Numbered from the stretch's first letter, positions 5,956 to 21,223 are shown. The stretch is 64,000 nt of DNA from an uncultured Oscillospiraceae bacterium (GCA_964550315.1 CAZJYY010000007.1:2806-66805); one strand, 5' to 3'. Numbers and translations are program-made. Notes: a model not told the origin generated them from the sequence alone.

Positions 5956-7644
5956 TTATGCCAACAGTCTTATAATGTCGTTTTTGCTTGTAATCGCAGG
6001 CGTGATGTGCGGCTGCTGTTCAGCAGCGTCCATGACGCTGTCTACCGTGCCGATGTCGCGGTAGATGATGCGGATGCTCTGCCCGGAGGAATGCGAGTAC
6101 TTCTTGCCACGCTCTCCCACCTCAATGCGCTGAATGAACAGGCGCAGCAGTTCCGGTGTCAGCTCGTCAATGGTGGTGTACCGCTTCGCCTTTTCAATGA
6201 AGGCATCCACATTGGCTGCAGAGGCTTTAAGTTTCTCCAGCCGCGATTCTTTCTCCGGGATAGCATCCTCCAGCGCCTTTTGTTCGGCATTGTAGTCAGC
6301 GGAGAGCATTCTGAACTGTTCGTTGGTCACACGGCCGAGGACATTGTCCTCATAGAGGTGTTTGAACAGGGTCGAGAGCTCACCGCTCCTTCGCCGCATG
6401 GTGTCCACATCCTTTTGCAGAGCATTGATCTCCCGCCGCAGTTCCAGTGTATTTTTCTGGTTGATGTAGGCCGCGAATTGCCGTTCCTTCATTCTGGCGA
6501 AGTGAGTGACACGGCGAAGATCGTCCAGTATAACTTGCTTGAGATCCACCACCCGAATCTGGTGTGGTGTGCAGGCCTCCTTGCCGCGTTTCCCATAGGT
6601 GGAACACCGCAAGTAGTATTGATCTTCCTGCATTTTTTCCGTGCGGTTGAGATACATGTACTTCCCGCAGTCGGCGCAGTAGACAAGGCCAGAGAACAGA
6701 TTGGGTTCCTCCATGTGCTTGGGTGCGCGGCGCTTGTGCTGACGGACATCTTGAACAATGTTCCATGTTTCCAACGTAATGATTGGCTCATGGGTATTCT
6801 CCACCAGCACCTGCTCGCTCTCTGGATTGTAAACGGCCTTCTTATTTTTGTAAGAGATGGTCGTCTTTCGCATGGAAAGCGTGTGACCGATGTAGACTGG
6901 GTTCTCAAGAATGTGTTTGACTGTCGATTGCTGCCACACATATGGTCTGGTTGTATCCAGTCCCATAACCGTTGCGCCCGTTTTCCGATAGTAATGGTTC
7001 GACGGGTTGAGGATCTGCTCCTTGGTCAGAATGCGTGCAATCTGACTCGGGCCCTTGCCGGAGGCGCAGAGCTCGAAGATGTGCCGCACCACCGGTGCGG
7101 TCTCTTCGTCCGACACAAGGCTTTTGGCGTCAGCATCCTTCTTTTTGTAGCCGTATGGAGGCTTGCCGCCCAGACGCTCACCGCGTTCCGCCTGCATCCG
7201 CTTGACGGCGCGCACTTTCTTGCTGGTATCCTTGGCATGGAGCTCGTTTGCCCAATTTCGGATGGGATTAAAATCGTTGCTGCTCTCCACCAGCGAGTCC
7301 ACGGAATCATTGACGGCGATGAAGCGGACGCCCTTCTGTGGCAGGTAGATTTCCGTATAATATCCCACCTGCAAATACTCGCGTCCCAGACGACTGAGGT
7401 CTTTGACGATGAGTGTCTCCACTTCACCGCGCTCAATCATTTCAATGACCTGCTTCCACGAGGGCCGCTCGAAGTTGGTGCCGGAATATCCGTCATCGGC
7501 CAGAAACAATGTGTTTTCGAATCCGTTATCATGAGCGAATTTCTGTAACAGGATCTGCTGATTGTGGATGGAATTCGACTCGCCCATGCGGTCATCCTCT
7601 TGACTGAGTCTGCCATAAAGTATATTGATTTTTTGGCTTGCCAT
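5956..7644 (-). CDS. large serine recombinase (TnpX/phage-integrase-like)
   Basis: 562 aa. The N-terminal resolvase catalytic domain is ILYGRLSQEDD...SIHNQ...DDGYSG...VKDLSRLGREY. It also has a recombinase domain, a Cys zinc ribbon (CADCGKYMY...CSTYGKRGKEACTPH) and a coiled-coil C-terminus. AGGAGG lies 10 nt upstream of the ATG. Confidence 0.92.
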   Translation of the reverse strand: MASQKINILYGRLSQEDDRMGESNSIHNQQILLQKFAHDNGFENTLFLADDGYSGTNFERPSWKQVIEMIERGEVETLIVKDLSRLGREYLQVGYYTEIYLPQKGVRFIAVNDSVDSLVESSNDFNPIRNWANELHAKDTSKKVRAVKRMQAERGERLGGKPPYGYKKKDADAKSLVSDEETAPVVRHIFELCASGKGPSQIARILTKEQILNPSNHYYRKTGATVMGLDTTRPYVWQQSTVKHILENPVYIGHTLSMRKTTISYKNKKAVYNPESEQVLVENTHEPIITLETWNIVQDVRQHKRRAPKHMEEPNLFSGLVYCADCGKYMYLNRTEKMQEDQYYLRCSTYGKRGKEACTPHQIRVVDLKQVILDDLRRVTHFARMKERQFAAYINQKNTLELRREINALQKDVDTMRRRSGELSTLFKHLYEDNVLGRVTNEQFRMLSADYNAEQKALEDAIPEKESRLEKLKASAANVDAFIEKAKRYTTIDELTPELLRLFIQRIEVGERGKKYSHSSGQSIRIIYRDIGTVDSVMDAAEQQPHITPAITSKNDIIRLLA

Positions 7645-7728
7645 GAATTATTTACCTCCTTCATATCGGGGCAAGCCGGTACGGTAGCATCAGTATACCG
7701 CACCGACCTGCACAAGTCTATTGGAATC

Positions 7729-8013
7729 TCAGGCGCTGTGGGCTTCTTTTGCAAGATCGGCATCAATGAGCGAGAGCAGCTTGTCCGTAGGAGTGGCCTT
7801 CGTCTCCGAAGGGAAAACCGAGGTGACGTGAAACACCTTGCCTCCAATCAGCATTTCCCTTGTACCGGTAAATCCATCGTCTTGGAACCAATAGGTCGTG
7901 TCGCGGAAAGTCGCGGCAACCTTGTTGGCATCCTCTTGGCGGAGCACAGCCTTGTTGGGATCATAGCTGCCCAGCATACCGGTATCTCTGTATTCTTCAT
8001 ATTCAGTTCTCAT
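7729..8013 (-). CDS. TnpW-like small transposon protein (putative)
   Basis: IGGKVFHVTSVFPSETKATPTDKLLSLIDADL resembles the TnpW family of Tn4451-type elements (from memory). The ATG at 8011-8013 follows GAAAGGAAA; the alternative ATG is at 8031. Confidence 0.5.
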   Translation of the reverse strand: MRTEYEEYRDTGMLGSYDPNKAVLRQEDANKVAATFRDTTYWFQDDGFTGTREMLIGGKVFHVTSVFPSETKATPTDKLLSLIDADLAKEAHSA

Positions 8014-8038
8014 AGATTTCCTTTCTGCCATATTCGGC

Positions 8039-9187
8039 TTACATCATAGTCATGCTGAACCCGAACTGCTCCTGCTCGTCCTCATAGCCCATGCAGTTTT
8101 CCGGTTCCTGTTTCAGTTCCTCAATAAAATCATTGAGATTTTGGTCATTGATTTTGTCGTGATCGGTATTGGCGATGGCGTCCAAAAGCAGATACACACC
8201 GGCGAAGGACAGCGCTGTAAGCGTGGCAAGCTCCGTGATGGTTTCCAGCTCATCGTCCTCACTGACGCCCTGCTCCAAGTATTTTGCATGATGCAGAATT
8301 TCATTGGTGAGCTTTCTGCCACTTCGGGACATAGGCATTTCGGATGCCTGCACAGGCTTGCGTTCCAATGTGTCGCGCTGCCATTCCCAGCCGGTGGCTT
8401 GCTCCGGCTCCTGCTTTTTCTCTCTGTAGTCAAACTCCAACTCCATGTTGACCTTGGAGTCCCGCTCACCGAACAGCCGGTCATCACGGCATGGCTTGCC
8501 GTTGGGACACAGGTAGGTGATGGTCTTGCGCTTGTCCGACCACTTGACGAAGTACCCCTGACACTCCATGTTGAAAATGAAATCCTCACGGGTTTTGCTC
8601 TTTGCCATAGCGATGTCGATAGCCTGCTGGAGCGCGTCCTTCCAACTGTCGCCCCGTGCCTGTGCCTTACGCTGGGCGCGGCTTGGAGTCTTGCTTCGTC
8701 CAAAGGTGTAGGTGGGCAGCGTTTCAAACCCGTGCGCTTGGCATATCTCATCGGAGGACAGCCGCAGCTTGCGGATGGTATCTGGTGGCTGATGCAGCTT
8801 TCGCCCGTCTGCGAAGCTCACCGAGTTGATAATAAAATGCGAATGGATATGCGGAGCGTCGATGTGAGTTGCAATCAGAACTTCATAATCCGGATAATTC
8901 TTGCGTGCGAACTCGCATGCAATTTCATGCGCGGTCTGCGGCGAGATATTTTCACCCACCTTGAAGCTTTGGGTGTAGTGGTAGAACTGAACATCGCCGG
9001 TCTTTTTATGCTGCGCCTTGGTGGAGAGGAACTCGGCGACAGCGGTTTCGGCACAGCAGTTCTGTCCCGTGATGAGACGGTACCCCTCCGGCAGCAATGT
9101 CTTTTCCTTTAGACAGGCGTATTGGATCACGCCGCGCAGAGTGAAGGCGGACTGCTTCTTGTACGGGATGTAATTAACGGTCGCCAT
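8039..9187 (-). CDS. relaxase / mobilization nuclease (MobA/VirD2 family)
   Basis: 382 aa. The histidine triad HIDAPHIHSHFIINSV (HxDxxxxHxH) and the N-terminal catalytic-Tyr region MATVNYIPYKK are present. GGAGGA RBS. Its start overlaps the mobC stop. Confidence 0.88.
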   Translation of the reverse strand: MATVNYIPYKKQSAFTLRGVIQYACLKEKTLLPEGYRLITGQNCCAETAVAEFLSTKAQHKKTGDVQFYHYTQSFKVGENISPQTAHEIACEFARKNYPDYEVLIATHIDAPHIHSHFIINSVSFADGRKLHQPPDTIRKLRLSSDEICQAHGFETLPTYTFGRSKTPSRAQRKAQARGDSWKDALQQAIDIAMAKSKTREDFIFNMECQGYFVKWSDKRKTITYLCPNGKPCRDDRLFGERDSKVNMELEFDYREKKQEPEQATGWEWQRDTLERKPVQASEMPMSRSGRKLTNEILHHAKYLEQGVSEDDELETITELATLTALSFAGVYLLLDAIANTDHDKINDQNLNDFIEELKQEPENCMGYEDEQEQFGFSMTMM

Positions 9188-9587
9188 AGGTTTCCTCCGT
9201 AATCCCGAACAGCTCCATCATCTGACGACGACGGTCAACGGTGATTGGCGGTTGTTCCGTCTTCGCTTCTGACTCTGGCGGTACACTGTTCCCGCCGCAT
9301 AGCATGGTGAGCCGGTCGAAGACGCTGCCGAGGGCATCCTTGGTTTCGCTCAAATTGACCGTCCGAAGGTGTCCCAAGTTGGCGCGGACGGTCAGCTGAT
9401 TCAGATTGTTGCCGATGGCCTTCAACTCCCGCGTGAGCTTATGCAGGCCGTCGATCACAACAATCTCCTTGTTAAAAATCGCATGCCGGATAAAATCCGA
9501 CTTGCTCATATGGGCTTTCTTTGCCAGCGCCTTCAGCATCTGCCGCTCTTTTTCGGTAGCCCTAAAGGTTTCAAATTTGTCTTTCAT
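9174..9587 (-). CDS. mobC: relaxosome accessory protein MobC
   Basis: 137 aa. It has a ribbon-helix-helix-like N-terminus (RATEKERQMLKALAKKAHMSKSDFIRHAI) and LKAIGNNLNQLTVRAN, typical of the MobC family. AAGGAG RBS. Confidence 0.8.
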   Translation of the reverse strand: MKDKFETFRATEKERQMLKALAKKAHMSKSDFIRHAIFNKEIVVIDGLHKLTRELKAIGNNLNQLTVRANLGHLRTVNLSETKDALGSVFDRLTMLCGGNSVPPESEAKTEQPPITVDRRRQMMELFGITEETYGDR

Positions 9588-9724
9588 TCAAGTGTTCTCC
9601 TTTTTATCGTTTGTCGTTCCCCGCATCCAAAGTGGGCACGGGCTTCTGCCCGAAAACTGGCGAGGCGCGGGCGTATATACGCCTGCTCTGCTCGCCCCAC
9701 CCGAGGTGGGAAGGCGTATCCCCG
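9588..9724. other. candidate oriT region upstream of mobC
   Basis: Non-coding 137 nt between the AAA ATPase stop and the mobC start. It contains a perfect 14-nt palindrome GGCGTATATACGCC (9670-9683), a hairpin CCCACC-cga-GGTGGG (9696-9710), and a repeat of GGCGTAT as GGCGTATCCCCG (9713-9724). Confidence 0.35.
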
Positions 9725-10792
9725 TCACCCCTCGTCAGGAACGCAAGGGTCGCAAGTGACGGAAGATTTGGCACACCCGGTATTTGCGTCATTTCCGTCA
9801 CTTGAGTCACTGTGAACAGCAGAGAAAGAAATATCTACCAGCCGCTGACCGTTGCTGCGATAGCTGCGGAAGTGTATGCCTGCTTCCTCCAACGGATAGC
9901 GCCACTTGTTCATCATCTGCTTGAGACCTTTTGCTGAAATGTCCATATTGGTGTTAGCATGGAACTGTTCGGTCAGCTCCGCGTTGCTGCCGGTGTAGGA
10001 ACCGATGCCGCGCGTGAACACAATCAGCGCCGCCATCTCTTTTGGCAAAAGCATCTCCGGCATCTCCGCACTGTCCATAATTAAATCCCACGAACAGTTT
10101 TCTTTGCAGAAGTTCAGTTCCAACTCACGGTATTCAATGTCGCGTCCCGTGCAGACAAGTGTTGCTGCCGACTGGCTGCGTTTGCTCTTGTCCAGCACAA
10201 ACACAGCGTCCACCGCACCGCTGATGCCCGTTGTGCCCGAGAGTTTGTTCAGCGGATCGCTGTCACCCTGTTTGCGCAGATGATGTACCAGCAGGAGCGA
10301 GATGCCCAACTCGTCCGCCAACGCTTTTATCTGCTGGATCTCCTGATAATCGCTGGCGTAGGATACATCCGTTTCGCTTCCACGCACCATCTGGAAGGTG
10401 TCGATGGCGACCAGTACCGTGTCGGGGTGCTCGAATATGAATTGACTGATCTGATTGACCAACCCATTCGCCAGCGTCTTGGCCGCCACCGCGAAGAACG
10501 CGTTGGGCGGCACCTCATCGGTGATGCAGAGCAGACGCTCCTGTATGCGCCGGGCGGTATCCTCAAGGCAGAGATACAGTGTCGTGCCCTTTGCGGTTGG
10601 CAGGTTCCAGATGCACTCGCCTTTAGCAATGCGGATGCACAGGTCAAGCACCAGCCAGCTCTTGCCGATCTTTGGTGCGCCGCCCAGCACGGTCACGCCC
10701 TGCGGCAAGAGTGTCTGCACGCAAAACCGAGTCGGCGGCAGCCGCATGTCCATCAGGGTTTCGCCGTCGATGACGGCCAGTTTATTTTCCAT
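9725..10792 (-). CDS. AAA/RecA-like ATPase (RepA/DnaB-C-like, mobile-element replication or transfer helper)
   Basis: 355 aa. Walker A is GGAPKIGKSW and Walker B is LLLVHHLRK, a RecA-fold pattern common in plasmid or ICE RepA-like proteins. GGAGGG RBS. Confidence 0.7.
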   Translation of the reverse strand: MENKLAVIDGETLMDMRLPPTRFCVQTLLPQGVTVLGGAPKIGKSWLVLDLCIRIAKGECIWNLPTAKGTTLYLCLEDTARRIQERLLCITDEVPPNAFFAVAAKTLANGLVNQISQFIFEHPDTVLVAIDTFQMVRGSETDVSYASDYQEIQQIKALADELGISLLLVHHLRKQGDSDPLNKLSGTTGISGAVDAVFVLDKSKRSQSAATLVCTGRDIEYRELELNFCKENCSWDLIMDSAEMPEMLLPKEMAALIVFTRGIGSYTGSNAELTEQFHANTNMDISAKGLKQMMNKWRYPLEEAGIHFRSYRSNGQRLVDISFSAVHSDSSDGNDANTGCAKSSVTCDPCVPDEG

Positions 10793-10903
10793 GTTGATCC
10801 CTCCTTCTTGTCTGCTTTCATTTTACAAAATCGTGTGGTATGCTTATATAGCGAATTGCAAGAATGAAATTTCGTTAAAATCTATTCTTTACGAGGTAAC
10901 TGC

Positions 10904-11989
10904 ATGGAGATTACTTATCCCTTTGCGAAGGTATTTGCAGACAACACAAATCGTCTGAGTGCATTCCTCTGCCACGATGCACAGCACAGCAGCTTTCGGC
11001 AGATCGGCGACATTGGAAACAGCCTTGTGGATTTTTGCGAGCTGGACTTTGCTCCTGCATTGGAGAAAACAAAAGCGCTGGCAACCATGAAGGTTACCAG
11101 CGCCAATGCGGAGGAGATGAAGTCTGTCTGTTGGGCGGCCGTGGATTGTTTGAAGGAGAAACACGCCTATGCCCACTTCTTTTTGAACAGTGATTTGGTA
11201 CGGAATTTTTACGCCTCCAACCGCACTTTGCCGGAGCAGGCGAACTATGCACACTTCCTGTTTCGCTACTATGCTGGGATGCGGGTGTTCTATCGGGAGG
11301 CATTGGAGCTTTGTTTGAGCACCGAGGTGCTGCCGGAATATACGCTTCCGGAGCGGTATGTGATGTTCGCAAACCTTCATCCGGAGGTTCAGAATCAAAT
11401 GCTGCGGACCATGTACGCCGTGGCTCCTGTCAGTCATGGTCAGTTCCACGCCGAGCAGGTAATTCAGTTTGACAATCCGGACGAGGTCAATGTGCGGACG
11501 GTTTTAGACGGGCTGCACAGAGACAGCGAAAACTCCGTCAGCCTTCATGCGTATTTTGCCGTGCAGAGTCTGGAAGAAATATTGTATTTGGAACTGATGG
11601 AAGCGGTGAAGCGAGGCATCCGCGTAAAGCGCTGCGCATTATGTGACCGATATTTTGCCCTTGCCGACAAGCGCAAGCGCAGCTACTGTGACCGCCTTTT
11701 CGACAAGAAGCATACCTGCAAGCAAATCGGCGCCAAGCAGAAATTCAGTCAGGCTGTGGGCGGAGATCCTTACTTGCAGGAGTTTCAGCGGGTCTATAAC
11801 CGAATGTACAGCCGGTACTATCGCGAGGACGCCGGGGACGGCGGCAGTGGAACGAAAAAATTAAGCGACGATGAATTTAAGGTGTGGACGGCCGCCGCAT
11901 CTGAGCTGCGCAGGGCATACCGCAGGAAAGAAATCAGCGGTGAGGAACTACTTCACCGCATTGCAGACGATGGCGCGGTCAAAGGATAG
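10904..11989 (+). CDS. hypothetical protein with C-terminal Cys cluster (only plus-strand gene in the island)
   Basis: 361 aa. The C-terminal RCALCDRYFALADKRKRSYCDRLFDKKHTCKQIG looks like a CxxC...C...C zinc-finger-like motif, followed by a basic Tyr/Arg-rich tail. A weak GAGGT RBS is present. Confidence 0.6.
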   Translation: MEITYPFAKVFADNTNRLSAFLCHDAQHSSFRQIGDIGNSLVDFCELDFAPALEKTKALATMKVTSANAEEMKSVCWAAVDCLKEKHAYAHFFLNSDLVRNFYASNRTLPEQANYAHFLFRYYAGMRVFYREALELCLSTEVLPEYTLPERYVMFANLHPEVQNQMLRTMYAVAPVSHGQFHAEQVIQFDNPDEVNVRTVLDGLHRDSENSVSLHAYFAVQSLEEILYLELMEAVKRGIRVKRCALCDRYFALADKRKRSYCDRLFDKKHTCKQIGAKQKFSQAVGGDPYLQEFQRVYNRMYSRYYREDAGDGGSGTKKLSDDEFKVWTAAASELRRAYRRKEISGEELLHRIADDGAVKG

Positions 11990-12043: not shown

Positions 12044-12811
12044 CTATTTCATTGGTGGCGTAGTTTGTGGCTTGCAGTCTGGCGGCGTGCTGATCTTTTC
12101 TGGCCTTGTGTTGATGGTCTGGTCGATGACTTCGCCGTTTGGTTCTGGCAGTTCTTGCGATGGTGCAGATGCATTGTGCGACGGCGCTTCGTCTTCGCCG
12201 CCCATGATACCGACCTTCACGCCGGACTCGTACATGATGTAGTTCTCTGTGCGCTGGCTCGGGCCGCTCCACTTCACCAACCCGAAGCCGGGGACTTCAT
12301 AGTAGGCGTCACCGTCAATCCAGATCGTGTCTGAGCCAAAGGCGGTGGGATATGTGATGGTCTTGCCGACGAGGTTGCCGCCTGAGTCGTTGAGGAGTTC
12401 CTCCGAGTAGACATTGTTTGGGTAGACATCGGTGTGGTAAATATCAGCTGATGCCGGTGCGGAGTTTTGCGGCGCAGATTTCACCGCAGGGGGCGCGGTT
12501 GGTGTCTCTTGCATGGCGGTGCCGGGTTCATCAGCGGTCACGGGCACTGACATGATTTCTTCTTTTACGGCTGTTTTCCCAGCCGTTTCGGGGGTGTAAT
12601 GTTCCGCTACCGGCATGACCGGCGTATCGTCAGAGAATGCATACACTTCTCTTTGCGTAGGCTGCGGAAGCTCCTCCGTGTAGACGCCTAAATCCCCACT
12701 TTCAGCGTCTGCGGGTACTTTCCCGCCCACGTCGTTTTGAGGCAACACAGCGGCACACAGCGCCGCACATGCGGCGATTACGATAGCTGTTGTGAGTATC
12801 TTTTTCATCAT
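12044..12811 (-). CDS. secreted hypothetical protein
   Basis: 255 aa. The signal peptide is MMKKILTTAIVIAACAALCAAVLPQ, followed by a Pro/Thr/Glu-rich linker and a small C-terminal domain. Its start ATGATGA overlaps the stop of the upstream gene. Confidence 0.65.
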   Translation of the reverse strand: MMKKILTTAIVIAACAALCAAVLPQNDVGGKVPADAESGDLGVYTEELPQPTQREVYAFSDDTPVMPVAEHYTPETAGKTAVKEEIMSVPVTADEPGTAMQETPTAPPAVKSAPQNSAPASADIYHTDVYPNNVYSEELLNDSGGNLVGKTITYPTAFGSDTIWIDGDAYYEVPGFGLVKWSGPSQRTENYIMYESGVKVGIMGGEDEAPSHNASAPSQELPEPNGEVIDQTINTRPEKISTPPDCKPQTTPPMK

Positions 12812-13125
12812 TTTGCGTTTTCTTTCACAGATGCAGAAAGGCCATCCAACTCAACCGCCTCGGTCGATGTTGAATGGCCTTCTTCATAATTGTTCAATTC
12901 ATTTGCCAACTGCCACGCCAACTTAAAGCCGCAGATGAAGCTGTCATATGACCGCTCCAACGCCATCATGCCCAAGTCATCTACAATTCGCAACACGACC
13001 TTGCGATCCTCTACCGCCAGCCGTTCCCGTAACAGGTCCCGATTCGCCTCCACCGCCTGTTTCAGTTCCATCATCTCCGGCGGTGAATAAAAGCTGTCAT
13101 ATAGTGCTCCCAGTATCTTGTCCAT
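12808..13125 (-). CDS. small helical hypothetical protein
   Basis: The ATG at 13123-13125 (MDKILGALYD...) is preceded by AAGGAGG 9 nt upstream. It is translationally coupled to the downstream secreted protein gene. Confidence 0.6.
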   Translation of the reverse strand: MDKILGALYDSFYSPPEMMELKQAVEANRDLLRERLAVEDRKVVLRIVDDLGMMALERSYDSFICGFKLAWQLANELNNYEEGHSTSTEAVELDGLSASVKENAK

Positions 13126-13322
13126 GTGCCTCGCCTCCTTGTAGCAAGACACAATACCAGAATAGGATTGGAAAGTCTATTACTATTTCTGTTTGCTTTA
13201 TTGGATTGCTGAAGGGGCGGGAAGTGCAACAGCCATGGCACTTAATATGTCCTGACGGCGTGCCGCCTATTTAGAATAGGTTTACTTTCTTGCCGTTCAT
13301 TAAGGATACGCCACCTCGCGAA

Positions 13323-14660
13323 CTATTCCGATCTGCTTTTGTCTATAGATTCTTCAGCACATATGGGGTTAGATCCTTGTAAAATTTCGTTTATTCCGGA
13401 GACCAGTGTGCATGAGAAACTACGCAGTCCTCCGGGAGTAGAGAGTCCTCGAACCGGTACTTGTATCGCAAAGACTGTGTTGCCGTCAATCTGATAAGTC
13501 GCCGCCAGATTGATAGGTGCTTCTGCATCCAATCCTGACTCGCTTGGATACGCCAAAAACAGATATCTGCACCCAGAAGATTGGCAAAATGCAAGAGCCT
13601 CATATAAGTCGGCGCGATTCACATCTCTGCTGCCATTAAGGGATAAATGCTTGTATTTAGCGTCGACAAGATACACGACTTCACCAGTGTCAGGTTGTAT
13701 TGTACTAACATCTGGATAAACAAATAGTCGCTGCGTTGCCGCATGCTCTTGAACAGTCCCAAACGGGAACGGTTTCTGCCCTACGCTGTCGAGGTCCGTT
13801 TCGCCGATCCGAATGGCGGTTGTCAGTAACCACTCCCATATCTGCCATGTACTTACTATAAAACCGGGTGAAAGAATGCTTCCATCGGTGAATATAGCAC
13901 CCATGCCATGTATAATGTCATATGCCAAATCGTACTCGCCCTTCCATCGAAGTTCGCGCGCTGGCAACTCAAGCCTTGGTCGATCCAGTCTAACAGGATC
14001 CTGCGGTTGGAGTACGGTGATGGATTCTTGAAGAATGCGCTGCACCTTTACATCGGTGATATGTGGCTGTACATAACGCATAGCCGCGAGAATTGTCGCG
14101 TTATACTCATTTTTCTTATCAAATGTGACATTCTCCTGAGGAATTCCATCCGGCTGCAAGACAAAAGCGTCTTCAAAACGGATTTCACCCTCTATGGAAT
14201 AACCATCGAACTGATTGCGCCGGTACTTTCGTAGCAGCTGCCGCCGCAAAGGAATGAAGTTCTCCGCCAAAGCACGACCTACTATATCATAAAGCGTACT
14301 CCGGAATGCTGAGACCGTGTGAATATTATCGCCTTCGAGAAGTCTGCCGTATTTGGAGAGTGTGGAAAGAAGATAAAAATCTTCTTTCCAATGCACGTCA
14401 CTTTCCGCAAAACCAAGGTATTTCGGGACGATTTCAAGTTCGACTTGCACCGAAAGTCGGATAGACCCCGCAACATTTGCCGCGCGAACTGTATCTGGCC
14501 CCATAATCAAAGGTGCAGCGGTGAGGGAAAGTGCTTTCATAATCCGAGCATTCGCTTTGCGCAGTAATATGCGCATATTTTGCGGTGCTATGCGACATCT
14601 GTTCGCAAGTACGTCTATATTTTCTGCTGGTCCGTATTCGTGTAAGACAATTTTATACAT
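13323..14660 (-). CDS. McrC-like PD-(D/E)xK nuclease subunit
   Basis: The LEIVPKY motif and PDTGEVVYLVDAKYK (D...D-x-K nuclease core) match the McrC family. The ATG at 14658-14660 sits in ATGTATAA, overlapping the stop of the upstream AAA+ gene. The longer track ORF (to 14762) would overlap by 110 nt. Confidence 0.8.
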   Translation of the reverse strand: MYKIVLHEYGPAENIDVLANRCRIAPQNMRILLRKANARIMKALSLTAAPLIMGPDTVRAANVAGSIRLSVQVELEIVPKYLGFAESDVHWKEDFYLLSTLSKYGRLLEGDNIHTVSAFRSTLYDIVGRALAENFIPLRRQLLRKYRRNQFDGYSIEGEIRFEDAFVLQPDGIPQENVTFDKKNEYNATILAAMRYVQPHITDVKVQRILQESITVLQPQDPVRLDRPRLELPARELRWKGEYDLAYDIIHGMGAIFTDGSILSPGFIVSTWQIWEWLLTTAIRIGETDLDSVGQKPFPFGTVQEHAATQRLFVYPDVSTIQPDTGEVVYLVDAKYKHLSLNGSRDVNRADLYEALAFCQSSGCRYLFLAYPSESGLDAEAPINLAATYQIDGNTVFAIQVPVRGLSTPGGLRSFSCTLVSGINEILQGSNPICAEESIDKSRSE

Positions 14661-15762
14661 CTGGCTCACCGGCCGCAACCATTGCCGGATAAACATTTGC
14701 TGCAGTAATAGCTGGCTTTCGTAAAACGGCGCGGACATCCTCAGCAAAGTTTGCTTCTTCAACTAAGTACGGCGATCGAACATCGGATGCGTTGATTACA
14801 TATCCGATAGAGATTGAATTTCCAAAAAACAACTCTTCAATGTGCGTCATAATCGTGCCCCACACATCGGCGCAGTAATCCAGGGCAGAGGAGAGGTTGT
14901 CAGCCGCAGGTCTTCTGATATTCATAAATATGCCGTGACCTAATCTATAAACATCGCCTCGCCCGACGGCAACCTTGTCATTTATTCGCTTGAGCGCTCG
15001 TATCGCCGCAAAGTACACTTCCTCAGCACGGGTTGGAATTTCGGGAAGCGCTACATCTTCAGTAATTCCAAAGAAGGTCCTTAAAGCATTGTAATCTGGC
15101 TCCAGCAAAACAGATTCCCAGCGCCTGAGAAACGCCACATCCAACGGAGCAACAGATACATCCGCCTGATTCATAGCTGCCAGAATATATAGGCGCGGCG
15201 AAAATGCGTAATCGACTGCATTCCCATCAACGGGCGAAATTATTTCAAAGCTCTGTGTCGTGGGAAGCACGGTGCCATCTTCAGCCAACCGTTTATCCAG
15301 TTCCAAAGCGGTAATACTCCCGCCGAATGCTTCAACGGCAGGACCGCGGTTGATTTCATCAAAAATGACAAGCGCAGCACTGTCCGGCTGTTTTGCGAAT
15401 TCATTCGCACGGTACAGAATGCCTTGTGTAACACAATACCCGTTATTCTCTGTGCCGATTTGAGGAACAATTCCAGTCAGCAGATCGCGGTACTTAGTGT
15501 TCTGGTGAAATGTTGTGCGGAAAACTTGTTTATGGGGAACGCGCAAAAACGGGAGCCTGCGCATTATGGGTGTTTCGACATCTGCGGGGATAGGAATTGC
15601 AGCACCAGGAATGTGTGCTGGAGCGTCTACCGGTTGACGGACAGTCATAAATTCTTCAGCCACTTCGTTCATAAGTCGAGACTTTCCTGTGCCTGGTGCT
15701 CCAATCAGCAAAACATTTTTACGTGTTTGCAGTTTCGCCAAAACCTCAAATTTATCTGCCAT
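14653..15762 (-). CDS. McrB-like AAA+ GTPase/ATPase lacking an N-terminal DNA-binding domain
   Basis: Walker A is LLIGAPGTGKSR at about residue 20 of 369, and Walker B is LVIFDEINRG. AAMNQADVS and LDVAFLRRW correspond to the McrB signatures MNTADRS and DxAxRRRF. The ATG at 15760-15762 follows GGGAGGG and overlaps the upstream stop by 11 nt. Confidence 0.82.
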   Translation of the reverse strand: MADKFEVLAKLQTRKNVLLIGAPGTGKSRLMNEVAEEFMTVRQPVDAPAHIPGAAIPIPADVETPIMRRLPFLRVPHKQVFRTTFHQNTKYRDLLTGIVPQIGTENNGYCVTQGILYRANEFAKQPDSAALVIFDEINRGPAVEAFGGSITALELDKRLAEDGTVLPTTQSFEIISPVDGNAVDYAFSPRLYILAAMNQADVSVAPLDVAFLRRWESVLLEPDYNALRTFFGITEDVALPEIPTRAEEVYFAAIRALKRINDKVAVGRGDVYRLGHGIFMNIRRPAADNLSSALDYCADVWGTIMTHIEELFFGNSISIGYVINASDVRSPYLVEEANFAEDVRAVLRKPAITAANVYPAMVAAGEPDV

Positions 15763-16345
15763 TGTTCCATTCCCTCCCGTTTTCAATATCTACATATCCA
15801 TTCGGGGTACCCCGACAATGAGCGTTCAGTCCGCGTAAAATGGGATCTTTAACAGCGGGATGCCAATTATCATTACGTAATGACTGCTCCGAAGTAAAAG
15901 ACGGCCATACGCGGTTTTCACTGTCAAGAACAAGTATAAGTACACAATCATCTGTATTAGTAGGCCTAACCTGTTCTGGAAAGCACTGGTGAACTGTTGC
16001 AATACGGACTTCTCCTGGGCGCGAATTCGTCGGCTGATGAATGGTTACATTCGTCGGAGGCAGTTCTGGCCAATAAAACTGCCCTAAGAGCGTGTTATCA
16101 GGACCTTGTACGGTAAACATACGGTTAAACAGCGGCGTGAACACACTATCAGGTCTGAAACGCAAGTCACGCGCGCCTCCTCCGTTATCAGAGTCGTTGG
16201 ACTCTGCTCGGAACTTTCTAAAGTCTCCGGGGACAATTTTTTTATAGATTATCAGCTTAACCCCTGTCAGCTGTGTGTTTCCGTTTGGCAATAAACTCAC
16301 CCGTCCTTTCGCCCACAATATCGGTTGGTATGTATGGTGTTGCAC
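15752..16345 (-). CDS. orphan protein of unknown function (candidate DNA-recognition subunit)
   Basis: 197-aa frame between the methyltransferase and the McrB-like gene, with both ends overlapping its neighbours. The first codon is GTG (16345). Alternative starts are GTG 16300 and TTG 16291, both after GAAAGGA. See findings for a tentative B3/EcoRII-N-like motif. Confidence 0.6.
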   Translation of the reverse strand: MQHHTYQPILWAKGRVSLLPNGNTQLTGVKLIIYKKIVPGDFRKFRAESNDSDNGGGARDLRFRPDSVFTPLFNRMFTVQGPDNTLLGQFYWPELPPTNVTIHQPTNSRPGEVRIATVHQCFPEQVRPTNTDDCVLILVLDSENRVWPSFTSEQSLRNDNWHPAVKDPILRGLNAHCRGTPNGYVDIENGREWNNGR

Positions 16346-18455
16346 CGCATTTACGAGCTGCTCGATAGCGCTCTGAGTATTCTTCTGCTTGTACGCCGTA
16401 TTGACTGGAAGCGCTGGATAATAAGTAGTCGCGTGTAACGGTTGACCTTATTTCGCCTTTGAGCGAGGGCTGCTTGCGGTCGAGGAGGGGAAAATCCTCC
16501 ATAATTAGATATAAATCATTATAACTCAATCCGTATGCCAGCGCTACAGCAATGTCAATCTTACACCGCAACGCCGCAATTTTCATCTCGTCTGCTTCGG
16601 GCGCACTCCGTAATTTGCGTATCGTCCGTGTCGCTGTAATGATCGCCTCAGCGGTCTTTGAGTCTATGCTAATTTCCGGCATTGGAACGCTGAGAATCAT
16701 GAAATAGTTTGCAGTCGTTGAGATAATCCGTCTGAGCAACCAGTCATATACGAAACTGTTTGTAATACCTACCCATAAAAGTTCACGCTTTCCGTCGCTG
16801 CTGTTTTCAAACAGTATAGTTGGAACCTTGTTCCCACAAGCGACGCCGGCAGGCAGAACGCAGCTCATCATCGCACGTTCGTTTGTCTGTCCGGCAATAT
16901 CGCAATAACCGACGCGTTCACGTTGCACTCTGGCATAAAATTCTTTGGATAAATCCTTCGGGTTCATCCAAAACTGCGGTTTCAGTTCGCCATTTGCCGG
17001 TTCCCACCGCGCGGCTCTTCCTGTACCGGACACATACTTTTTAACCGCGAACCAGTGTTGCTGTACCATGCGCCCTTCAACAACGGCAATAGTAGCGCCA
17101 TTCGGCTTAGTGTAAAAAAGGCCTTTATCGTTTGTCATATCAAGTTCACGCGAAATGCTGCAAGCCCACTCGGGGCTGTTACTCCAATCACAGCTGTTCT
17201 CATATATTCGGAAATACAACTCCACCTCTTCTGCTGAGCGAACCTCTGGCAGAGTCAAATCCGGTCTTGCTTTGCGAAGCTTTTGGACAGATATTGTCAC
17301 TGGTTCGGACACCGAAATCTCGTTTTTAGTTCCACCACAATGAGCGAGTTTGATACTTTCCACGAGCGATGCTTTTGCAGTGAAATCGCAATCCAGCAAA
17401 ACAAACTTGAACCGAGTATCTATGGCAAAAAAACGAGGTCGGTTGCTGATAATAACGAAATCTAAATGTGAGCATTTTGTAGCAAGTTTTTCACGAATGG
17501 CAGTTGTACCCTTTGACCGAATAATCCCGGCCGGCAATAGGATCAGGATCCTGCCACCTTCCTTCACCGCACCAAACGCTCTTTGCAAAAAAGCAATATA
17601 GGTGTCGGACTCTGTTTTTTGCAACCAGTCGTATTGTTCACGCAGACGTTTGTTATAATCCGCAAGTTTCTTTTTCTCCGCAGCAAAATGATCATTGTCA
17701 TATGGTTCATACTCTGCACCGTATGTGTGATCGTTGCCGTTCTTCGCCATATATGCGTGTCTCGTCAGTTTGACCTTTCCCCAAGGCGGATTTCCAACAA
17801 CCAGATCAAATTCTCTTGTGGGGAGATCATCATCCAGAAGGCTGTCCGCAACTCGCCATTTCTCTGTCATGGTTTTTATGCCTGTGACATCAGAAAGATA
17901 GGAGGATAACGCGATTCGACAGCCGCGAAGCGCATGCCCCGACAAATCATACGCATACACATTTCGACTAAGCCAGCGCTCCATATCGGCAGGATATTTT
18001 CGTTTGTATGCAGCGGTCACCGCAGTAAGCAGAATACCTGATCCAGAGGACAAATCCGCGACAGTCGATTCTTTTGACAGGACTGCACTGCTGTGATCTC
18101 CAATCAATGTTGCAAGCCGATAGTCAGTATAATATGCGCCCAATTCTTTTTGGTCGGCTCGGTCAAGTGGTTCCCGTGACAGCGCCGCGATAATAAGGGC
18201 CTTGTCCACGCCGATGTTTTCAGCTAATAGCGTCAGCTTTGCCGAAACACTATGCAGAAGCGTAGAATCAAATTTCGCTGCCACCTGAAAGCAAGAGCAG
18301 TAATCGGCGTAGTCAAATCCTCCAATAGTGCTTGCCCAATGCTCAAGCAACTGCAGCTTTCCTTCATATTCGTTGGGGGTGTTCTGGATCGCATTTGCAA
18401 TAGCCGCTTCAAAAGGCTGCAAAAGCGACACTTCATATGTTGTTGTTACAGCCAT
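16257..18455 (-). CDS. gamma-class N6-adenine DNA methyltransferase (Eco57I/TaqI-like NPPW type) with large C-terminal target-recognition region and no nuclease domain
   Basis: 732 aa. It has motif X GAYYTD, motif I DLSSGSGILL and motif IV VVGNPPWG. About 400 aa lie after the catalytic core. The start overlaps the upstream methylase stop by 23 nt and follows AAAGGAAA. Confidence 0.85.
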   Translation of the reverse strand: MAVTTTYEVSLLQPFEAAIANAIQNTPNEYEGKLQLLEHWASTIGGFDYADYCSCFQVAAKFDSTLLHSVSAKLTLLAENIGVDKALIIAALSREPLDRADQKELGAYYTDYRLATLIGDHSSAVLSKESTVADLSSGSGILLTAVTAAYKRKYPADMERWLSRNVYAYDLSGHALRGCRIALSSYLSDVTGIKTMTEKWRVADSLLDDDLPTREFDLVVGNPPWGKVKLTRHAYMAKNGNDHTYGAEYEPYDNDHFAAEKKKLADYNKRLREQYDWLQKTESDTYIAFLQRAFGAVKEGGRILILLPAGIIRSKGTTAIREKLATKCSHLDFVIISNRPRFFAIDTRFKFVLLDCDFTAKASLVESIKLAHCGGTKNEISVSEPVTISVQKLRKARPDLTLPEVRSAEEVELYFRIYENSCDWSNSPEWACSISRELDMTNDKGLFYTKPNGATIAVVEGRMVQQHWFAVKKYVSGTGRAARWEPANGELKPQFWMNPKDLSKEFYARVQRERVGYCDIAGQTNERAMMSCVLPAGVACGNKVPTILFENSSDGKRELLWVGITNSFVYDWLLRRIISTTANYFMILSVPMPEISIDSKTAEAIITATRTIRKLRSAPEADEMKIAALRCKIDIAVALAYGLSYNDLYLIMEDFPLLDRKQPSLKGEIRSTVTRDYLLSSASSQYGVQAEEYSERYRAARKCGATPYIPTDIVGERTGEFIAKRKHTADRG

Positions 18456-19488
18456 CCGATTTGTTTCCTTTCGTATATACGATTAGATACTCGTCAACCT
18501 GTGACTTTCGCTGTACCGCAGTCTGGTTTGGACGATAGCTCCCTATACTTTGTAAATTTACGACTTCTACTTTACCATGCTGCAATAATTCCTGCTTCAA
18601 CGAATCAATGTTGACATGACCGTCATCGCTATACGAAAGTAGTATTTGCTTTGCTGGAAGCGTCAACAAAAGATTAATTAAGGCTTTGTGTGCTTTCGCC
18701 TTGTAGCAGAAAACGGAGGCATCCTGCTTCCATGGGCGTAGCCCGGAAACACCTTCGACGGCAGGCTCATCCTCCTGTGCAATTGTCTCAAGTATGTGAT
18801 AATACGACGCATACTGCCTTTTTGTGTATGGTGGGTCTATATATACACAATCATCCGGGTTACACGGAAGATCAAACACATCGCAGCACATTGCCTCGTA
18901 TCGTGTTGGCTCTGCAAACAAGTCAAAGAGGCTTAACCTAAAGGGCCGCGTTGACTGCTCTGTCCATTTTGATAGGAAACAACCATATGTCCCCGCAGTA
19001 TTTGCAACATTGTTCGCGGCCGACATGACACTCGCGAGCAGCAATGTGTGCTCCCGTTCGTTTATAACACCGTCACGATACCATCCAGCAATTTGTACGC
19101 GAACAGCGTCAATACACTGGGCGTTATCCTCTGAAAAATACCGTCGCTCGTGCGGGGTGAAGCTTTTGGATGCAGGTGAATACTCCCTCCATATATATCC
19201 CTTGATCGGCGATAGCGAATTGAGTTCATCAATAGTGGCTTGATATCCACCGAGAGTTTTAAATTCGGCATCCTGCGCGGAAAGTAATCTTGCTTCCGAC
19301 ATAACAACAGCGTTCTTCATTCTGTCGTTTATTAGAACAGGCCACCCGGCTCGCGCGGCTTCATAGGCGACGATCCCCGTACCGCACATAGCGTCAATAA
19401 ACCTACTGTTTGCAGATTTGGGTTTCCCTACATATTCAATAATTGATTCGACGACCCTTGCTTTTGATCCGATATACCGATATCCCAT
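18433..19488 (-). CDS. D12-class (Dam-like, alpha) N6-adenine DNA methyltransferase
   Basis: 351 aa. It has N-terminal YRYIGSKAR, motif I RFIDAMCGTGIV and motif IV VYIDPPY in the order I-TRD-IV. Confidence 0.85.
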   Translation of the reverse strand: MGYRYIGSKARVVESIIEYVGKPKSANSRFIDAMCGTGIVAYEAARAGWPVLINDRMKNAVVMSEARLLSAQDAEFKTLGGYQATIDELNSLSPIKGYIWREYSPASKSFTPHERRYFSEDNAQCIDAVRVQIAGWYRDGVINEREHTLLLASVMSAANNVANTAGTYGCFLSKWTEQSTRPFRLSLFDLFAEPTRYEAMCCDVFDLPCNPDDCVYIDPPYTKRQYASYYHILETIAQEDEPAVEGVSGLRPWKQDASVFCYKAKAHKALINLLLTLPAKQILLSYSDDGHVNIDSLKQELLQHGKVEVVNLQSIGSYRPNQTAVQRKSQVDEYLIVYTKGNKSDGCNNNI

Positions 19489-19527
19489 TGTTTGTTTACC
19501 TGCTTTATCATTTTTGTTTCCCCGTGT

Positions 19528-19746
19528 TCACTTCGTCGATACTTCCTTTGGAAGAACCTCCATGATATCATTGATACCGACACCCAGCGCCTGACATATT
19601 TTAATTAAAATTTCCGTATTCACATTCTCGCCCTTGCCAAGCTTAGCAAGGGACGATGTGCTTATATCCGCCAGCTCACAAAGCTCGCGCTTTTTCATAC
19701 CGCGGTCAATTAGCAAATGCCATAGCTTCTTATAGCTCGCACCCAA
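19528..19746 (-). CDS. XRE-family helix-turn-helix regulator (controller/C-protein-like)
   Basis: KKLWHLLIDRGMKKRELCELADISTSSLAKLGKGENVNTEILIKICQALGVGINDIM is a classical Cro/C1 HTH. The likely TTG start at 19744-19746 lies 5-6 nt after AGAGGTGA. The track start is GTG at 19755. Confidence 0.8.
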   Translation of the reverse strand: MGASYKKLWHLLIDRGMKKRELCELADISTSSLAKLGKGENVNTEILIKICQALGVGINDIMEVLPKEVSTK

Positions 19747-19793
19747 AATTATCACCTCTCAAGAATAATGCTTGCGAATCAACACTTTCTGGT

Positions 19794-19822
19794 ATTATAT
19801 CACAAGAACTATCGCGATTCAA
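19794..19822 (-). promoter_or_regulatory. putative promoter of the controller/defense operon
   Basis: On the minus strand: TTGAAT (19817-19822), a 17-nt spacer, then TATAAT (19794-19799) with an upstream TGTGA. The spacer and -35 overlap the palindrome ATCGCGAT (19811-19818) and one arm of the inverted repeat CAAGAAAG (19820-19827) / CTTTCTTG (19850-19857). Confidence 0.4.
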
Positions 19823-20245
19823 GAAAGCAATTACGAGTTCTCAAAACTACTTTCTTGTTTTCACAATAGAGGCGTATCGGATAATCTGTTAAATTTGTGC
19901 TGTCAACGCTTCTTCTGGTTCTACACTGCCGACACGGATAAGCCACGGCGATACTTCAAGTGTCATACTATCGGAAACAGCTCAATCCAATGGCCAAATA
20001 CTATGATGTAGAGCCGATAACATGTCCTCAAAATATGTATCGTTTTTGTATGTTTTCTGTTCCAGATCATTAGTGCTTTTCAACAGACGTTGTTTTAATG
20101 AATGCTTGTACGATTGCCTTGAGTACTGCGATGGAAAACTTGGATACTACCTTATTTCAATGAAGTGTCATCAGTGTCAGTTTGCATTGTGGCAAATTTT
20201 TTCGCAGGTAGGCTTTGCGGAGTATAGTGCATAATCATCAACTGA

Positions 20246-20379: not shown

Positions 20380-21123
20380 CTATCTGGGAGGCAAATAGTC
20401 GGCAGGGTCAACGCTTTGACCGTCAAGAGTCATTCTGAAGCAAAGGTGTGTGTTCTCGGCACGCTCGCCAAGGGCTGTTGCGCCAACGGCACCTATTACC
20501 TCTCCGTTCATTACATTATCCCCCACGGAAACAGTAGGAAGCGCTGCAAGGTTGGAGTAAATACTCTTAAGTCCGCCTGAATGCTCGATGACAACGGTAG
20601 TTCCGTCAACAGGGTCCATCTCCACGCTGACCACACGTCCTGCCCCGCAGGCAAGAACCTGTGTTCCAATGGGGACGCTAAGATCCACACCATCATGAGT
20701 ACGCCAGTCGCCCAGCTTCTCATTATATACCAGCGCAGCCACAGAATAGGGCATGTCTATTTCCCCGAATACCGGCCAAATAAACTGTGCGCTTGGAGTA
20801 ACGGTGGTTTCCTGCTTAGGTTCTGCGCCTGTTTCCACAGTGTCCGTGGCTGTCTCAAGACTTTGGCTGTCGCCCTCCTGCTGTACGTCTGCAGGCTCTT
20901 CATCCTGAATTACAGGCTGCTCCATTACGGGCGGCGTTACCACCACCGGCTGCTCAAGGACGTTGCCGCCCTCAGTCTCCTCTACATCAGTCCCTCTGTT
21001 CGAAAGCATTGCATAGACACTGAAGCCTATAACAGCTACGCACAGTACAAGGACTATGTAGTAGCCCCTGCCATCGACAAAAAACGCTTTTGCGCTCTTT
21101 CGAAAGCTTTTAAAATCGCTCAT
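20380..21123 (-). CDS. M23 family metallopeptidase (LytM domain), membrane anchored
   Basis: It has an N-terminal TM segment (YYIVLVLCVAVIGFSVYAML) and a C-terminal HDGVDLSVPIGTQVLA...HLCF LytM motif. The ATG at 21121-21123 follows AGGAGG. Confidence 0.85.
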   Translation of the reverse strand: MSDFKSFRKSAKAFFVDGRGYYIVLVLCVAVIGFSVYAMLSNRGTDVEETEGGNVLEQPVVVTPPVMEQPVIQDEEPADVQQEGDSQSLETATDTVETGAEPKQETTVTPSAQFIWPVFGEIDMPYSVAALVYNEKLGDWRTHDGVDLSVPIGTQVLACGAGRVVSVEMDPVDGTTVVIEHSGGLKSIYSNLAALPTVSVGDNVMNGEVIGAVGATALGERAENTHLCFRMTLDGQSVDPADYLPPR

Positions 21124-21223
21124 TACAAACCTCCTGAACGAAAAAAATGGTGTTTCCAAGGCTATTTTTGCCAGTGAAAACACCATTTATACTATTCATT
21201 CAGAAAAAGTTTCCGTAATTTTC

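Follow-up and report, generated by a model that had tools for sequence, protein, structure and literature searches.

McrBC-type restriction machines that act together with methylases are represented by the non-canonical systems LlaI and BsuMI, in which a stand-alone R1 protein accompanies an McrB-like R2 without N-terminal domain or N-linker, an McrC-like R3 and methylases, the genes being C, M, R1, R2 and R3 in LlaI and M1, M2, R1, R2 and R3 in BsuMI (bioRxiv 10.64898/2026.08.31.748284). In both systems R1 binds R2, DNA binding has been shown for LlaI.R1 and is putative for BsuMI.R1, and the R2 proteins of this class hydrolyse GTP, ATP, XTP and ITP (bioRxiv 10.64898/2026.08.31.748284). The McrB-like proteins of LlaI and BsuMI had already been described by O'Driscoll et al. 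(2006) as short and as members of cassettes of three open reading frames (ORFs) (PMC1459862). In the related LlaJI system, which has two methylases, a B3 domain fused to the McrB-like subunit reads an unmodified asymmetric site (PMC12707154, PMC7680126), and a census of McrBC systems found methylase association to be frequent and probably ancestral (PMC11090510). Here we analyse a stretch of 64,000 nt from an uncultured Oscillospiraceae bacterium (GCA_964550315.1 CAZJYY010000007.1:2806-66805; this whole stretch is called the window hereafter), which carries a cassette of six genes, C, M1, M2, R1, R2 and R3. Judged from its protein sequences, the cassette is a restriction-modification (R-M) operon of a kind already known from LlaI and BsuMI, in which McrBC is combined with methylases, and it is located on a mobilisable island.

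The six genes, as read from translations and profile searches, are co-directional on the minus strand and span positions 13323-19755 (Table 1). They encode an XRE-type helix-turn-helix (HTH) regulator, two putative N6-methyladenine (m6A) methylases, the small stand-alone protein R1, the motor R2 and the nuclease R3. A gap of 39 nt separates C from M1, and all the following neighbours overlap, by 23 nt (M1/M2), 35 nt (M2/R1), 11 nt (R1/R2) and 8 nt (R2/R3, with R3 directly downstream of R2). An earlier note on this DNA, made from the sequence alone, had described six co-directional genes at this place; all of them are present, each family call was upheld by the profiles, and every motif quoted in that note was found in the translations. 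The relatives that it named, LlaI, LlaJI and BsuMI, are the right ones according to the published descriptions.

Table 1. Positions in the window of the cassette genes, of the elements upstream of them and of the island backbone.
Feature	Position	Strand	Length, start or structure	Family or basis
C (XRE HTH regulator)	19528-19755	minus	72 aa from TTG 19746 (probable start); 75 aa as longest ORF	PF13443
M1 (D12-class m6A methylase)	18433-19488	minus	351 aa	PF02086
M2 (gamma-class N6-adenine methylase)	16257-18455	minus	732 aa	PF02384 + PF07669
R1 (small stand-alone protein)	15752-16291	minus	179 aa; longest ORF to 16345 = 197 aa
R2 (McrB-like AAA+ NTPase)	14653-15762	minus	369 aa from ATG	PF07728
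R3 (McrC-like PD-(D/E)xK nuclease)	13323-14660	minus	445 aa from ATG	PF10117
Promoter-like site	19794-19822	minus	TTGAAT, 17-nt spacer, TG-extended TATAAT; ~45 nt upstream of the C gene	consensus scan
Imperfect inverted repeat	19820-19857		18-nt arms, 78% complementary, 2-nt gap; abuts the -35 hexamer	repeat search
Island backbone carrying the cassette	5956-11989		left of the cassette
Large serine recombinase	5956-7644	minus		Pfam
MobA/VirD2 relaxase	8039-9187	minus		Pfam
NikA/MobC	9174-9587	minus		Pfam
AAA_25 protein	9725-10792	minus		Pfam
DUF6076 protein	10904-11989	plus		Pfam

The identity of the motor and of the nuclease is well defined by their profiles. R2 matched PF07728 (AAA_5) in Pfam and the McrB model of NCBIfam (E 4e-15), as well as the McrB structures of Thermococcus gammatolerans (Tg) and Escherichia coli (Ec) with E-values from 9e-15 to 9e-13, and the alignment to both contains the Walker B sequence DEINRG, the MNxAD loop and the RR(R) motif. 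The P-loop begins at residue 21, and the protein has no DNA-binding domain at its N-terminus and no N-linker. All of the 120 best listed homologues measure about 275-390 aa with the exception of two (540 and 545 aa), and conservation among 44 orthologues is at least 90% for Walker A and B, the MNQAD loop and the RR motif. R3 aligned over the whole PF10117 McrBC model (positions 1-318 of 318) and scored 64.9 bits, where the cutoff is 23.9; conservation of its PD...vDAKYK motif reaches at least 90% among 41 orthologues, and the protein had no match in PHROGs or PADLOC. Among the sequences of the Protein Data Bank (PDB) there was no match for R1 or R3, and R2 matched only the Tg and Ec McrB proteins. 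The assignment of the 369-aa and 445-aa proteins to the McrB and McrC families, already proposed in the earlier note, agrees with these searches (PF07728, NCBIfam McrB, PF10117). Its description of the machine as GTP-driven is doubtful: GTP specificity comes from the N-linker, which R2 proteins without the domain do not have, and such proteins use GTP, ATP, XTP and ITP. The motor stripped of a DNA-binding domain and the extra stand-alone protein, both of which had been considered distinctive, are defining traits of the known LlaI/BsuMI class with its separate R1.

Evidence that these genes form one system comes from their recurrence. A scan for the exact R1 nonapeptide in one genome per species (185,579 species), whose count is a lower bound, located the corresponding loci in at least 48 species genomes, and three plasmids with the same arrangement (from Citrobacter, Sphingobium and Pimelobacter) bring the set to 51 related loci. 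The hosts span at least eight phyla and include Clostridia, Bacilli, Alpha- and Gammaproteobacteria, Actinomycetota and Cyanobacteria, together with Dehalococcoidia (Chloroflexota), Gemmatimonadota, Rhodothermales, Binatia and Vulcanimicrobiota. According to tblastn searches with the window proteins, the order M1-M2-R1-R2-R3 is kept in every one of the 51 loci that extends far enough, the exception being a Rhodothermales locus (L042) in which M1 is inverted; M1, at 35-73% identity, adjoins M2 in all related loci that are long enough to show it, and M2 is kept next to R1. The closest cassettes occur in Caproicibacter and in Oscillospiraceae metagenome-assembled genomes, and in other genomes the cassette sits on plasmids or in regions resembling integrative and conjugative elements (ICE-like regions). 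Recurrence of this gene order in 51 independent loci is far beyond chance.

This conservation bears directly on whether R2 and R3 could be an ordinary Type IV McrBC that happens to lie beside unrelated methylases, with R1 reading foreign modified bases. Such an arrangement would be in keeping with the McrB and McrC family membership of both proteins and with the very varied reader domains that McrB partners are known to use (bioRxiv 10.64898/2026.08.31.748284), but we regard it as highly improbable. The five genes overlap and have the same neighbours in all 51 loci, in many phyla and on unrelated mobile backbones, which would not be expected of chance neighbours, and because the synteny is conserved, a fortuitous adjacency to a Type IV McrBC is hard to accept. 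Inherited together with two active methylases, a Type IV enzyme would also run the risk of self-attack, and LlaI, LlaJI and BsuMI, whose target is unmodified DNA, are documented to be associated with methylases. The canonical enzymes of E. coli and T. gammatolerans do share with the cassette the AAA+ signature and a nuclease of the McrC family, but they possess a fused modification-reader and a GTP-specifying N-linker, have no cognate methylase and attack modified DNA, and none of these features applies to the window cassette. The coupling of McrBC to two methylases, conserved across phyla, argues for a methylase-protected system attacking unmodified DNA, so that the central idea of the earlier note, an McrBC motor with cognate methylases aimed at unmodified DNA, is upheld as far as sequence comparison can reach.

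R1 had been described as a 197-aa protein with no assignable family, and indeed it had no match in Pfam, PADLOC, NCBIfam, PHROGs or the PDB sequences. Its length, in turn, is most likely 179 aa, counted from the TTG at 16291, since the homologues measure about 175-200 aa and the gene calls on near-identical contigs give 179 aa. Homologues formed 112 clusters at 90% identity, and by profile search the family grew to 300 clusters (50% identity), with E < 1e-30 for 136. Nearly all of the members are free-standing proteins of 175-210 aa, and they share the invariant motifs GGGARDLRF and T..R..E.R, plus a tryptophan. The AlphaFold2 model of R1, built with 48 homologues, reached a pLDDT of 90.7 and a pTM of 0.87. 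When this model was compared with the PDB by Foldseek, the restriction enzyme BfiI came first (E 2e-3, probability 1.0), followed by the plant B3 domains of ARF5, TEM1 and At1g16640 and then by the B3 domain of UbaLAI; the superposition on the TEM1 B3 domain gave a target-normalised TM of 0.64 and a root-mean-square deviation of 3.4 Å. R1 is therefore, on the basis of its model, probably a B3-like 'DNA-binding pseudobarrel'. No ERCC4-type structure appeared among the 50 Foldseek matches listed.

Domain fusions in the family point in the same direction. The homologue P0249 consists of an N-terminal PLD nuclease followed by the R1 domain, in a BfiI-like order (hhalign 99.7%), and in P0115 the R1 domain precedes NOV_C. 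In P0163, P0174 and P0188 it precedes AAA_5, that is, the canonical McrB layout, such R1-R2 fusions being found in only a few of the 300 clusters. As the fusions to PLD and NOV_C are not explicable by frameshift, they support the reading of R1 independently of the model. The predicted B3-like fold and the fusions to nuclease domains suggest a DNA-binding role, and we predict that R1 serves the nuclease as its specificity subunit. As a separate observation, R1 is intact, at about 170 aa, in nine Collinsella loci (L043-L051; for instance L045, 8971-9510), but only its residues 14-102 align, the C-terminal half having diverged past tblastn detection; this variability suggests that the C-terminal half could relate to DNA specificity or to partner contact. 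Neither Foldseek against viral structures nor tblastn against phage genomes gave any sign of phage-borne R1 copies or decoys.

The two methylases are of different classes. M1 belongs to the D12 class (PF02086, E 1e-26 in Pfam), with the alpha-type motif order and the motifs FIDAMCGTG and DPPY, and it also matched MTase_II of PADLOC over its full length (PDLC03257, E 2.5e-65). M2 combines PF02384 and PF07669 in Pfam and matched TIGR02987, the Alw26I/Eco31I/Esp3I family of NCBIfam, with an E-value of 1e-30, yet below the cutoff of that family. Its residues 280-600 match the methylase and target-recognition part of Type IIG enzymes (PADLOC PDLC03622, E 9e-21), the C-terminal target-recognition region is long (~400 aa), and the profile searches detected no nuclease domain in it. 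The S-adenosylmethionine-binding and (D/N)PP(Y/W) motifs are intact in both M1 and M2, and by family both are N6-adenine types. In a variant from Virgibacillus/Sediminibacillus (L015, 4439-11980, and L017), M1 shows only about 35% identity to the window M1, the place of M2 is taken by a 939-aa protein aligning to the window M2 over residues 216-679 only, and ahead of R1 there is a spacing of about 630 nt in which an antisense ORF lies; this variant may represent a specificity swap of the methylase pair in which R1-R2-R3 was kept.

The size of the M2 recognition region raises the question of whether cleavage specificity might reside there, following the logic of Type I, III and IIG enzymes, with R1 acting only as an adaptor, an assembly factor or a regulator. 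The relationship of this region of ~400 aa to Type IIG enzymes, the 35-nt overlap of the M2 and R1 genes and the near-neutral isoelectric point of R1 (6.9, not strongly basic) would fit such a division of labour, as would a single M2-R1 fusion protein, P0125 (884 aa), which joins an M2-like methylase (PF07669, PF02384) to an R1 domain at 703-878. That fusion, which speaks against R1 as a subunit of the nuclease, could be a frameshift across the overlapping M2 and R1 genes or a hint that R1 can serve a methylase. We nevertheless consider it unlikely that M2 provides the specificity of cleavage, given that the R1 domain is also fused directly to PLD and NOV_C nuclease domains in proteins without a methylase, that the best fold matches of R1 are the DNA-recognition domains of restriction enzymes, and that R1 proteins of the LlaI/BsuMI class bind R2, LlaI.R1 also binding DNA.

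With R1 as the predicted reader, the system can be compared with those already described. It resembles LlaI and BsuMI in the separate R1 gene directly upstream of a domain-less R2, in the McrC-like R3 and in the cognate methylases, and it further resembles LlaI, from the Lactococcus lactis plasmid pTR2030, in the upstream controller, a putative one in the window, and the single operon on a mobile element. LlaI.R1 has 331 aa, with an ERCC4-like domain and a second one, and it matches Eme1, ERCC1 and FAAP24 (bioRxiv 10.64898/2026.08.31.748284); compared with this published description, the R1 of the window, with 179 aa and one predicted B3-like domain, is different in size and predicted fold. 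The target site of LlaI is not known, and BsuMI.R1 cannot be modelled (bioRxiv 10.64898/2026.08.31.748284). The methylases differ as well: the window has two m6A enzymes of different classes, LlaI has a single methylase gene and BsuMI has two in a separate operon. The methylase of LlaI is one fused two-domain, FokI-like enzyme, and those of BsuMI are 5-methylcytosine (m5C) enzymes. The alpha/D12 plus gamma pairing of two separate adenine methylases, singled out in the earlier note, appears truly different from the LlaI/BsuMI class.

LlaJI, known from the Lactococcus plasmid pNP40 and from a Helicobacter pylori homologue, shares with the cassette an McrB-related NTPase and an McrC-related nuclease directed against unmodified DNA, as well as two methylases, both of which LlaJI requires to be fully protected. 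Its B3 domain, however, is fused to the N-terminus of the McrB-like protein, so that it has two R genes, whereas in the window R1 is a separate gene in a different frame and there are three; the LlaJI methylases are both m5C and those of the window both m6A. The predicted B3-like fold also connects R1 to the recognition domains of BfiI-, UbaLAI- and EcoRII-type enzymes, BfiI and UbaLAI being among the structures most similar to the R1 model, but those enzymes are single-chain nucleases without a motor, whereas R1 is free-standing and is accompanied by an AAA+ ring protein and by a nuclease on another chain. Searching plasmids with R2 by tblastn retrieved loci of two genes, similar to LlaJI, from Fructilactobacillus, Staphylococcus and Bacillus and no LlaI, and a large protein search with R2 gave no named LlaI or YdiS entries among the matches listed. 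The methylation-associated defence system (MADS) was rejected as a candidate: the NCBIfam MAD2 model scored 26.5 bits, far under its cutoff of 720, the match to PADLOC mad8 (E 1e-4) covered the P-loop only, and the other MAD genes are absent. As to whether the architecture has already been characterised, the gene roles do match those of LlaI, but the small protein is unlike LlaI.R1 and neither R1 nor R3 is covered by a model in PADLOC; a literature search, REBASE lying outside it, found no paper describing the R1 family or the five-gene cassette. If the predicted fold of R1 is right, the window system combines the split LlaI/BsuMI architecture with the B3-type reader of LlaJI, and its new elements are the R1 family, widespread, undescribed and predicted to be B3-like, and the pairing of an alpha with a gamma m6A methylase.

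Taken together, these data suggest a working model in five steps, whose biochemistry, asymmetric site and regulatory component we infer and which we consider likely as a whole: the methylases protect, R1 reads, R2 translocates, R3 cuts and the regulator tunes establishment. M1 and M2 would each methylate one adenine, one strand each, of an asymmetric site, thereby protecting the host DNA. R1 would read the unmethylated site and dock on R2, and R2, as an McrB-type AAA+ ring, would translocate DNA, probably with any nucleoside triphosphate rather than with GTP only, by analogy with LlaI.R2 and BsuMI.R2. R3 would insert into the ring, stimulate hydrolysis and, once DNA has been translocated, cut it, probably when two complexes collide. 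The small XRE protein, together with the promoter and the inverted repeat at 19794-19857, would probably time or tune expression upon the island's arrival in a new cell. The model is built on the family assignments, the intact motifs, the gene overlaps, the conserved synteny, the predicted fold of R1 and the R1 fusions.

Several points, besides the fusion P0125, weigh against this picture. The B3-like matches of R1 are modest, with query-normalised TM values of 0.42-0.47 and none at E <= 0.001. At the sequence level, no link of R1 to any solved structure was found when its profile was compared with all PDB sequences, which returned a chance match only, and when hhalign compared the profile with the N-terminal part of a LlaJI-like R1 encoded on plasmid pLS2, the probability was 0.3%. 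The R1-AAA_5 fusions have approximately the summed length of two overlapping genes and hence could be frameshift artefacts. The assignment of one methylase to each strand of an asymmetric site is drawn by analogy from Type IIS enzymes, LlaI and LlaJI. Finally, canonical McrB has a nucleotide-stacking aromatic residue directly after GK(S/T) (bioRxiv 10.64898/2026.08.31.748284); the residue after the P-loop of R2 is an arginine, not conserved among the 44 orthologues, and without a conserved aromatic residue at this place the nucleotide handling of R2 may differ.

The regulatory gene at the head of the operon appears to be a more variable companion of the five others. The C protein matched PF13443 (HTH_26) with an E-value of 1e-16 in Pfam, and its gene is called as 72 aa on near-identical contigs, so that the TTG at 19746 is probably the start. 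The promoter-like site upstream of it is a consensus match (10/12 with TG) with a presumed function, and the adjoining inverted repeat could be, speculatively, an operator for the C regulator. R-M systems under C-protein control are headed by a small XRE-type gene whose own promoter bears an operator, the C-box; the HTH gene of the window, with its promoter-like site and inverted repeat, may be a counterpart. C orthologues at the same position, with 51-59% identity, were found in only three of the related loci (L004-L006), which are the nearest relatives of the window cassette; the others have an unrelated small regulator upstream of M1, or nothing obvious. Small genes lie upstream in L001 (4336-4704), L002 (4411-4671), L029 (5381-5656), L014 (5438-5692), L009 (5481-5753) and L011 (5583-5780). 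Reading their sequences, we take those of L001, L002 and L029 (Citrobacter, Sphingobium and Allohahella) to share a conserved protein of the ribbon-helix-helix (RHH) kind, MRFTD.KSETLNLRVS..., that of L014 to be another RHH-like protein, and those of the two Clostridia loci L009 and L011 to be excisionase-type HTH proteins. The controller slot seems to be filled interchangeably, and C does not seem to be core to the system. The C protein invoked in the earlier note as a part of the system is present here, but, being swapped or missing in most related loci, it is not a fixed component.

The genes to the left of the cassette form the backbone of an island that carries a large serine recombinase, a relaxase and NikA/MobC, all found by Pfam, in agreement with the serine-recombinase mobilisable island proposed previously. 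The GC content of the cassette is 47.0%, against 53.1% in the backbone, and this contrast, along with the backbone genes to the left, makes the interpretation of the cassette as cargo of a mobilisable island a sound one. Between the mobilisation genes and the cassette lie the DUF6076 gene, on the opposite strand, and then two ORFs without family assignment, one of 255 aa and one of 114 aa, on the minus strand (12044-13152); the 255-aa ORF had no Pfam match, the 114-aa ORF not being part of that search, and the DUF6076 protein and both ORFs have a backbone-like GC content. Right of the cassette there is a terminator-like hairpin, followed by an ORF at 20380-21186 that we take to be an M23-type peptidase and by ORFs that are presumably glycolysis genes (enolase, phosphoglycerate mutase). 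At the edge of the window, on the minus strand at 448-1629, a 393-aa protein ends in a C-terminal ArdA antirestriction domain (PF07275, E 4e-10); its gene is found about 4 kb from the serine recombinase, on the far side of genes for a Phos_pyr_kin-family kinase and an M20 peptidase, and it may belong to a second mobile element or to a larger composite island.

The backbone proteins had no match in the 51 related loci except two weak recombinase matches at 22-24% identity (L039 and L004), and the idea that the backbone travels with the cassette was rejected on these grounds. Since the backbone is not found with related cassettes, the cassette appears as a self-contained portable module. Its location as cargo on a mobilisable island here, and on plasmids or ICE-like regions elsewhere, as well as its deviating GC content, might also be expected of an addiction module that stabilises the island by post-segregational killing, or of a cassette that is inactive in its host. 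We judge it very unlikely that either is the main role of the cassette: all the catalytic motifs are intact and conserved, and there is no sign of decay in the sequence. Addiction and defence, moreover, are not mutually exclusive for R-M systems.

Returning to the cassette as a restriction system against unmodified DNA, we see about an even chance that R1 founds a third and structurally separate class of stand-alone specificity subunits for McrBC-type motors, after LlaI.R1 and BsuMI.R1, one that would be B3-like and blocked by N6-adenine methylation. If so, M1-M2-R1-R2-R3 would constitute a widespread R-M subtype, and, as its m6A marks could be read by single-molecule real-time (SMRT) sequencing and R1 models confidently, it could become the most tractable system in which to study how a detachable reader places DNA on an McrB-type ring. 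This bears on the wider question of how McrBC-type rings hold and move DNA. To a specialist in restriction enzymes the concept is unsurprising, but the split system is widespread and tractable, with the practical gains of a compact and well-modelled R1, m6A marks easily seen by SMRT sequencing and dozens of orthologous cassettes, and the family may yield new asymmetric-site specificities. The wiring of the same B3-like reader domain to PLD, NOV_C and McrBC-type nucleases would be an example of modular evolution among restriction enzymes. For bacteria of the gut and the environment, the cassette is a likely barrier to transformation that moves on mobilisable islands, plasmids and ICE-like elements.

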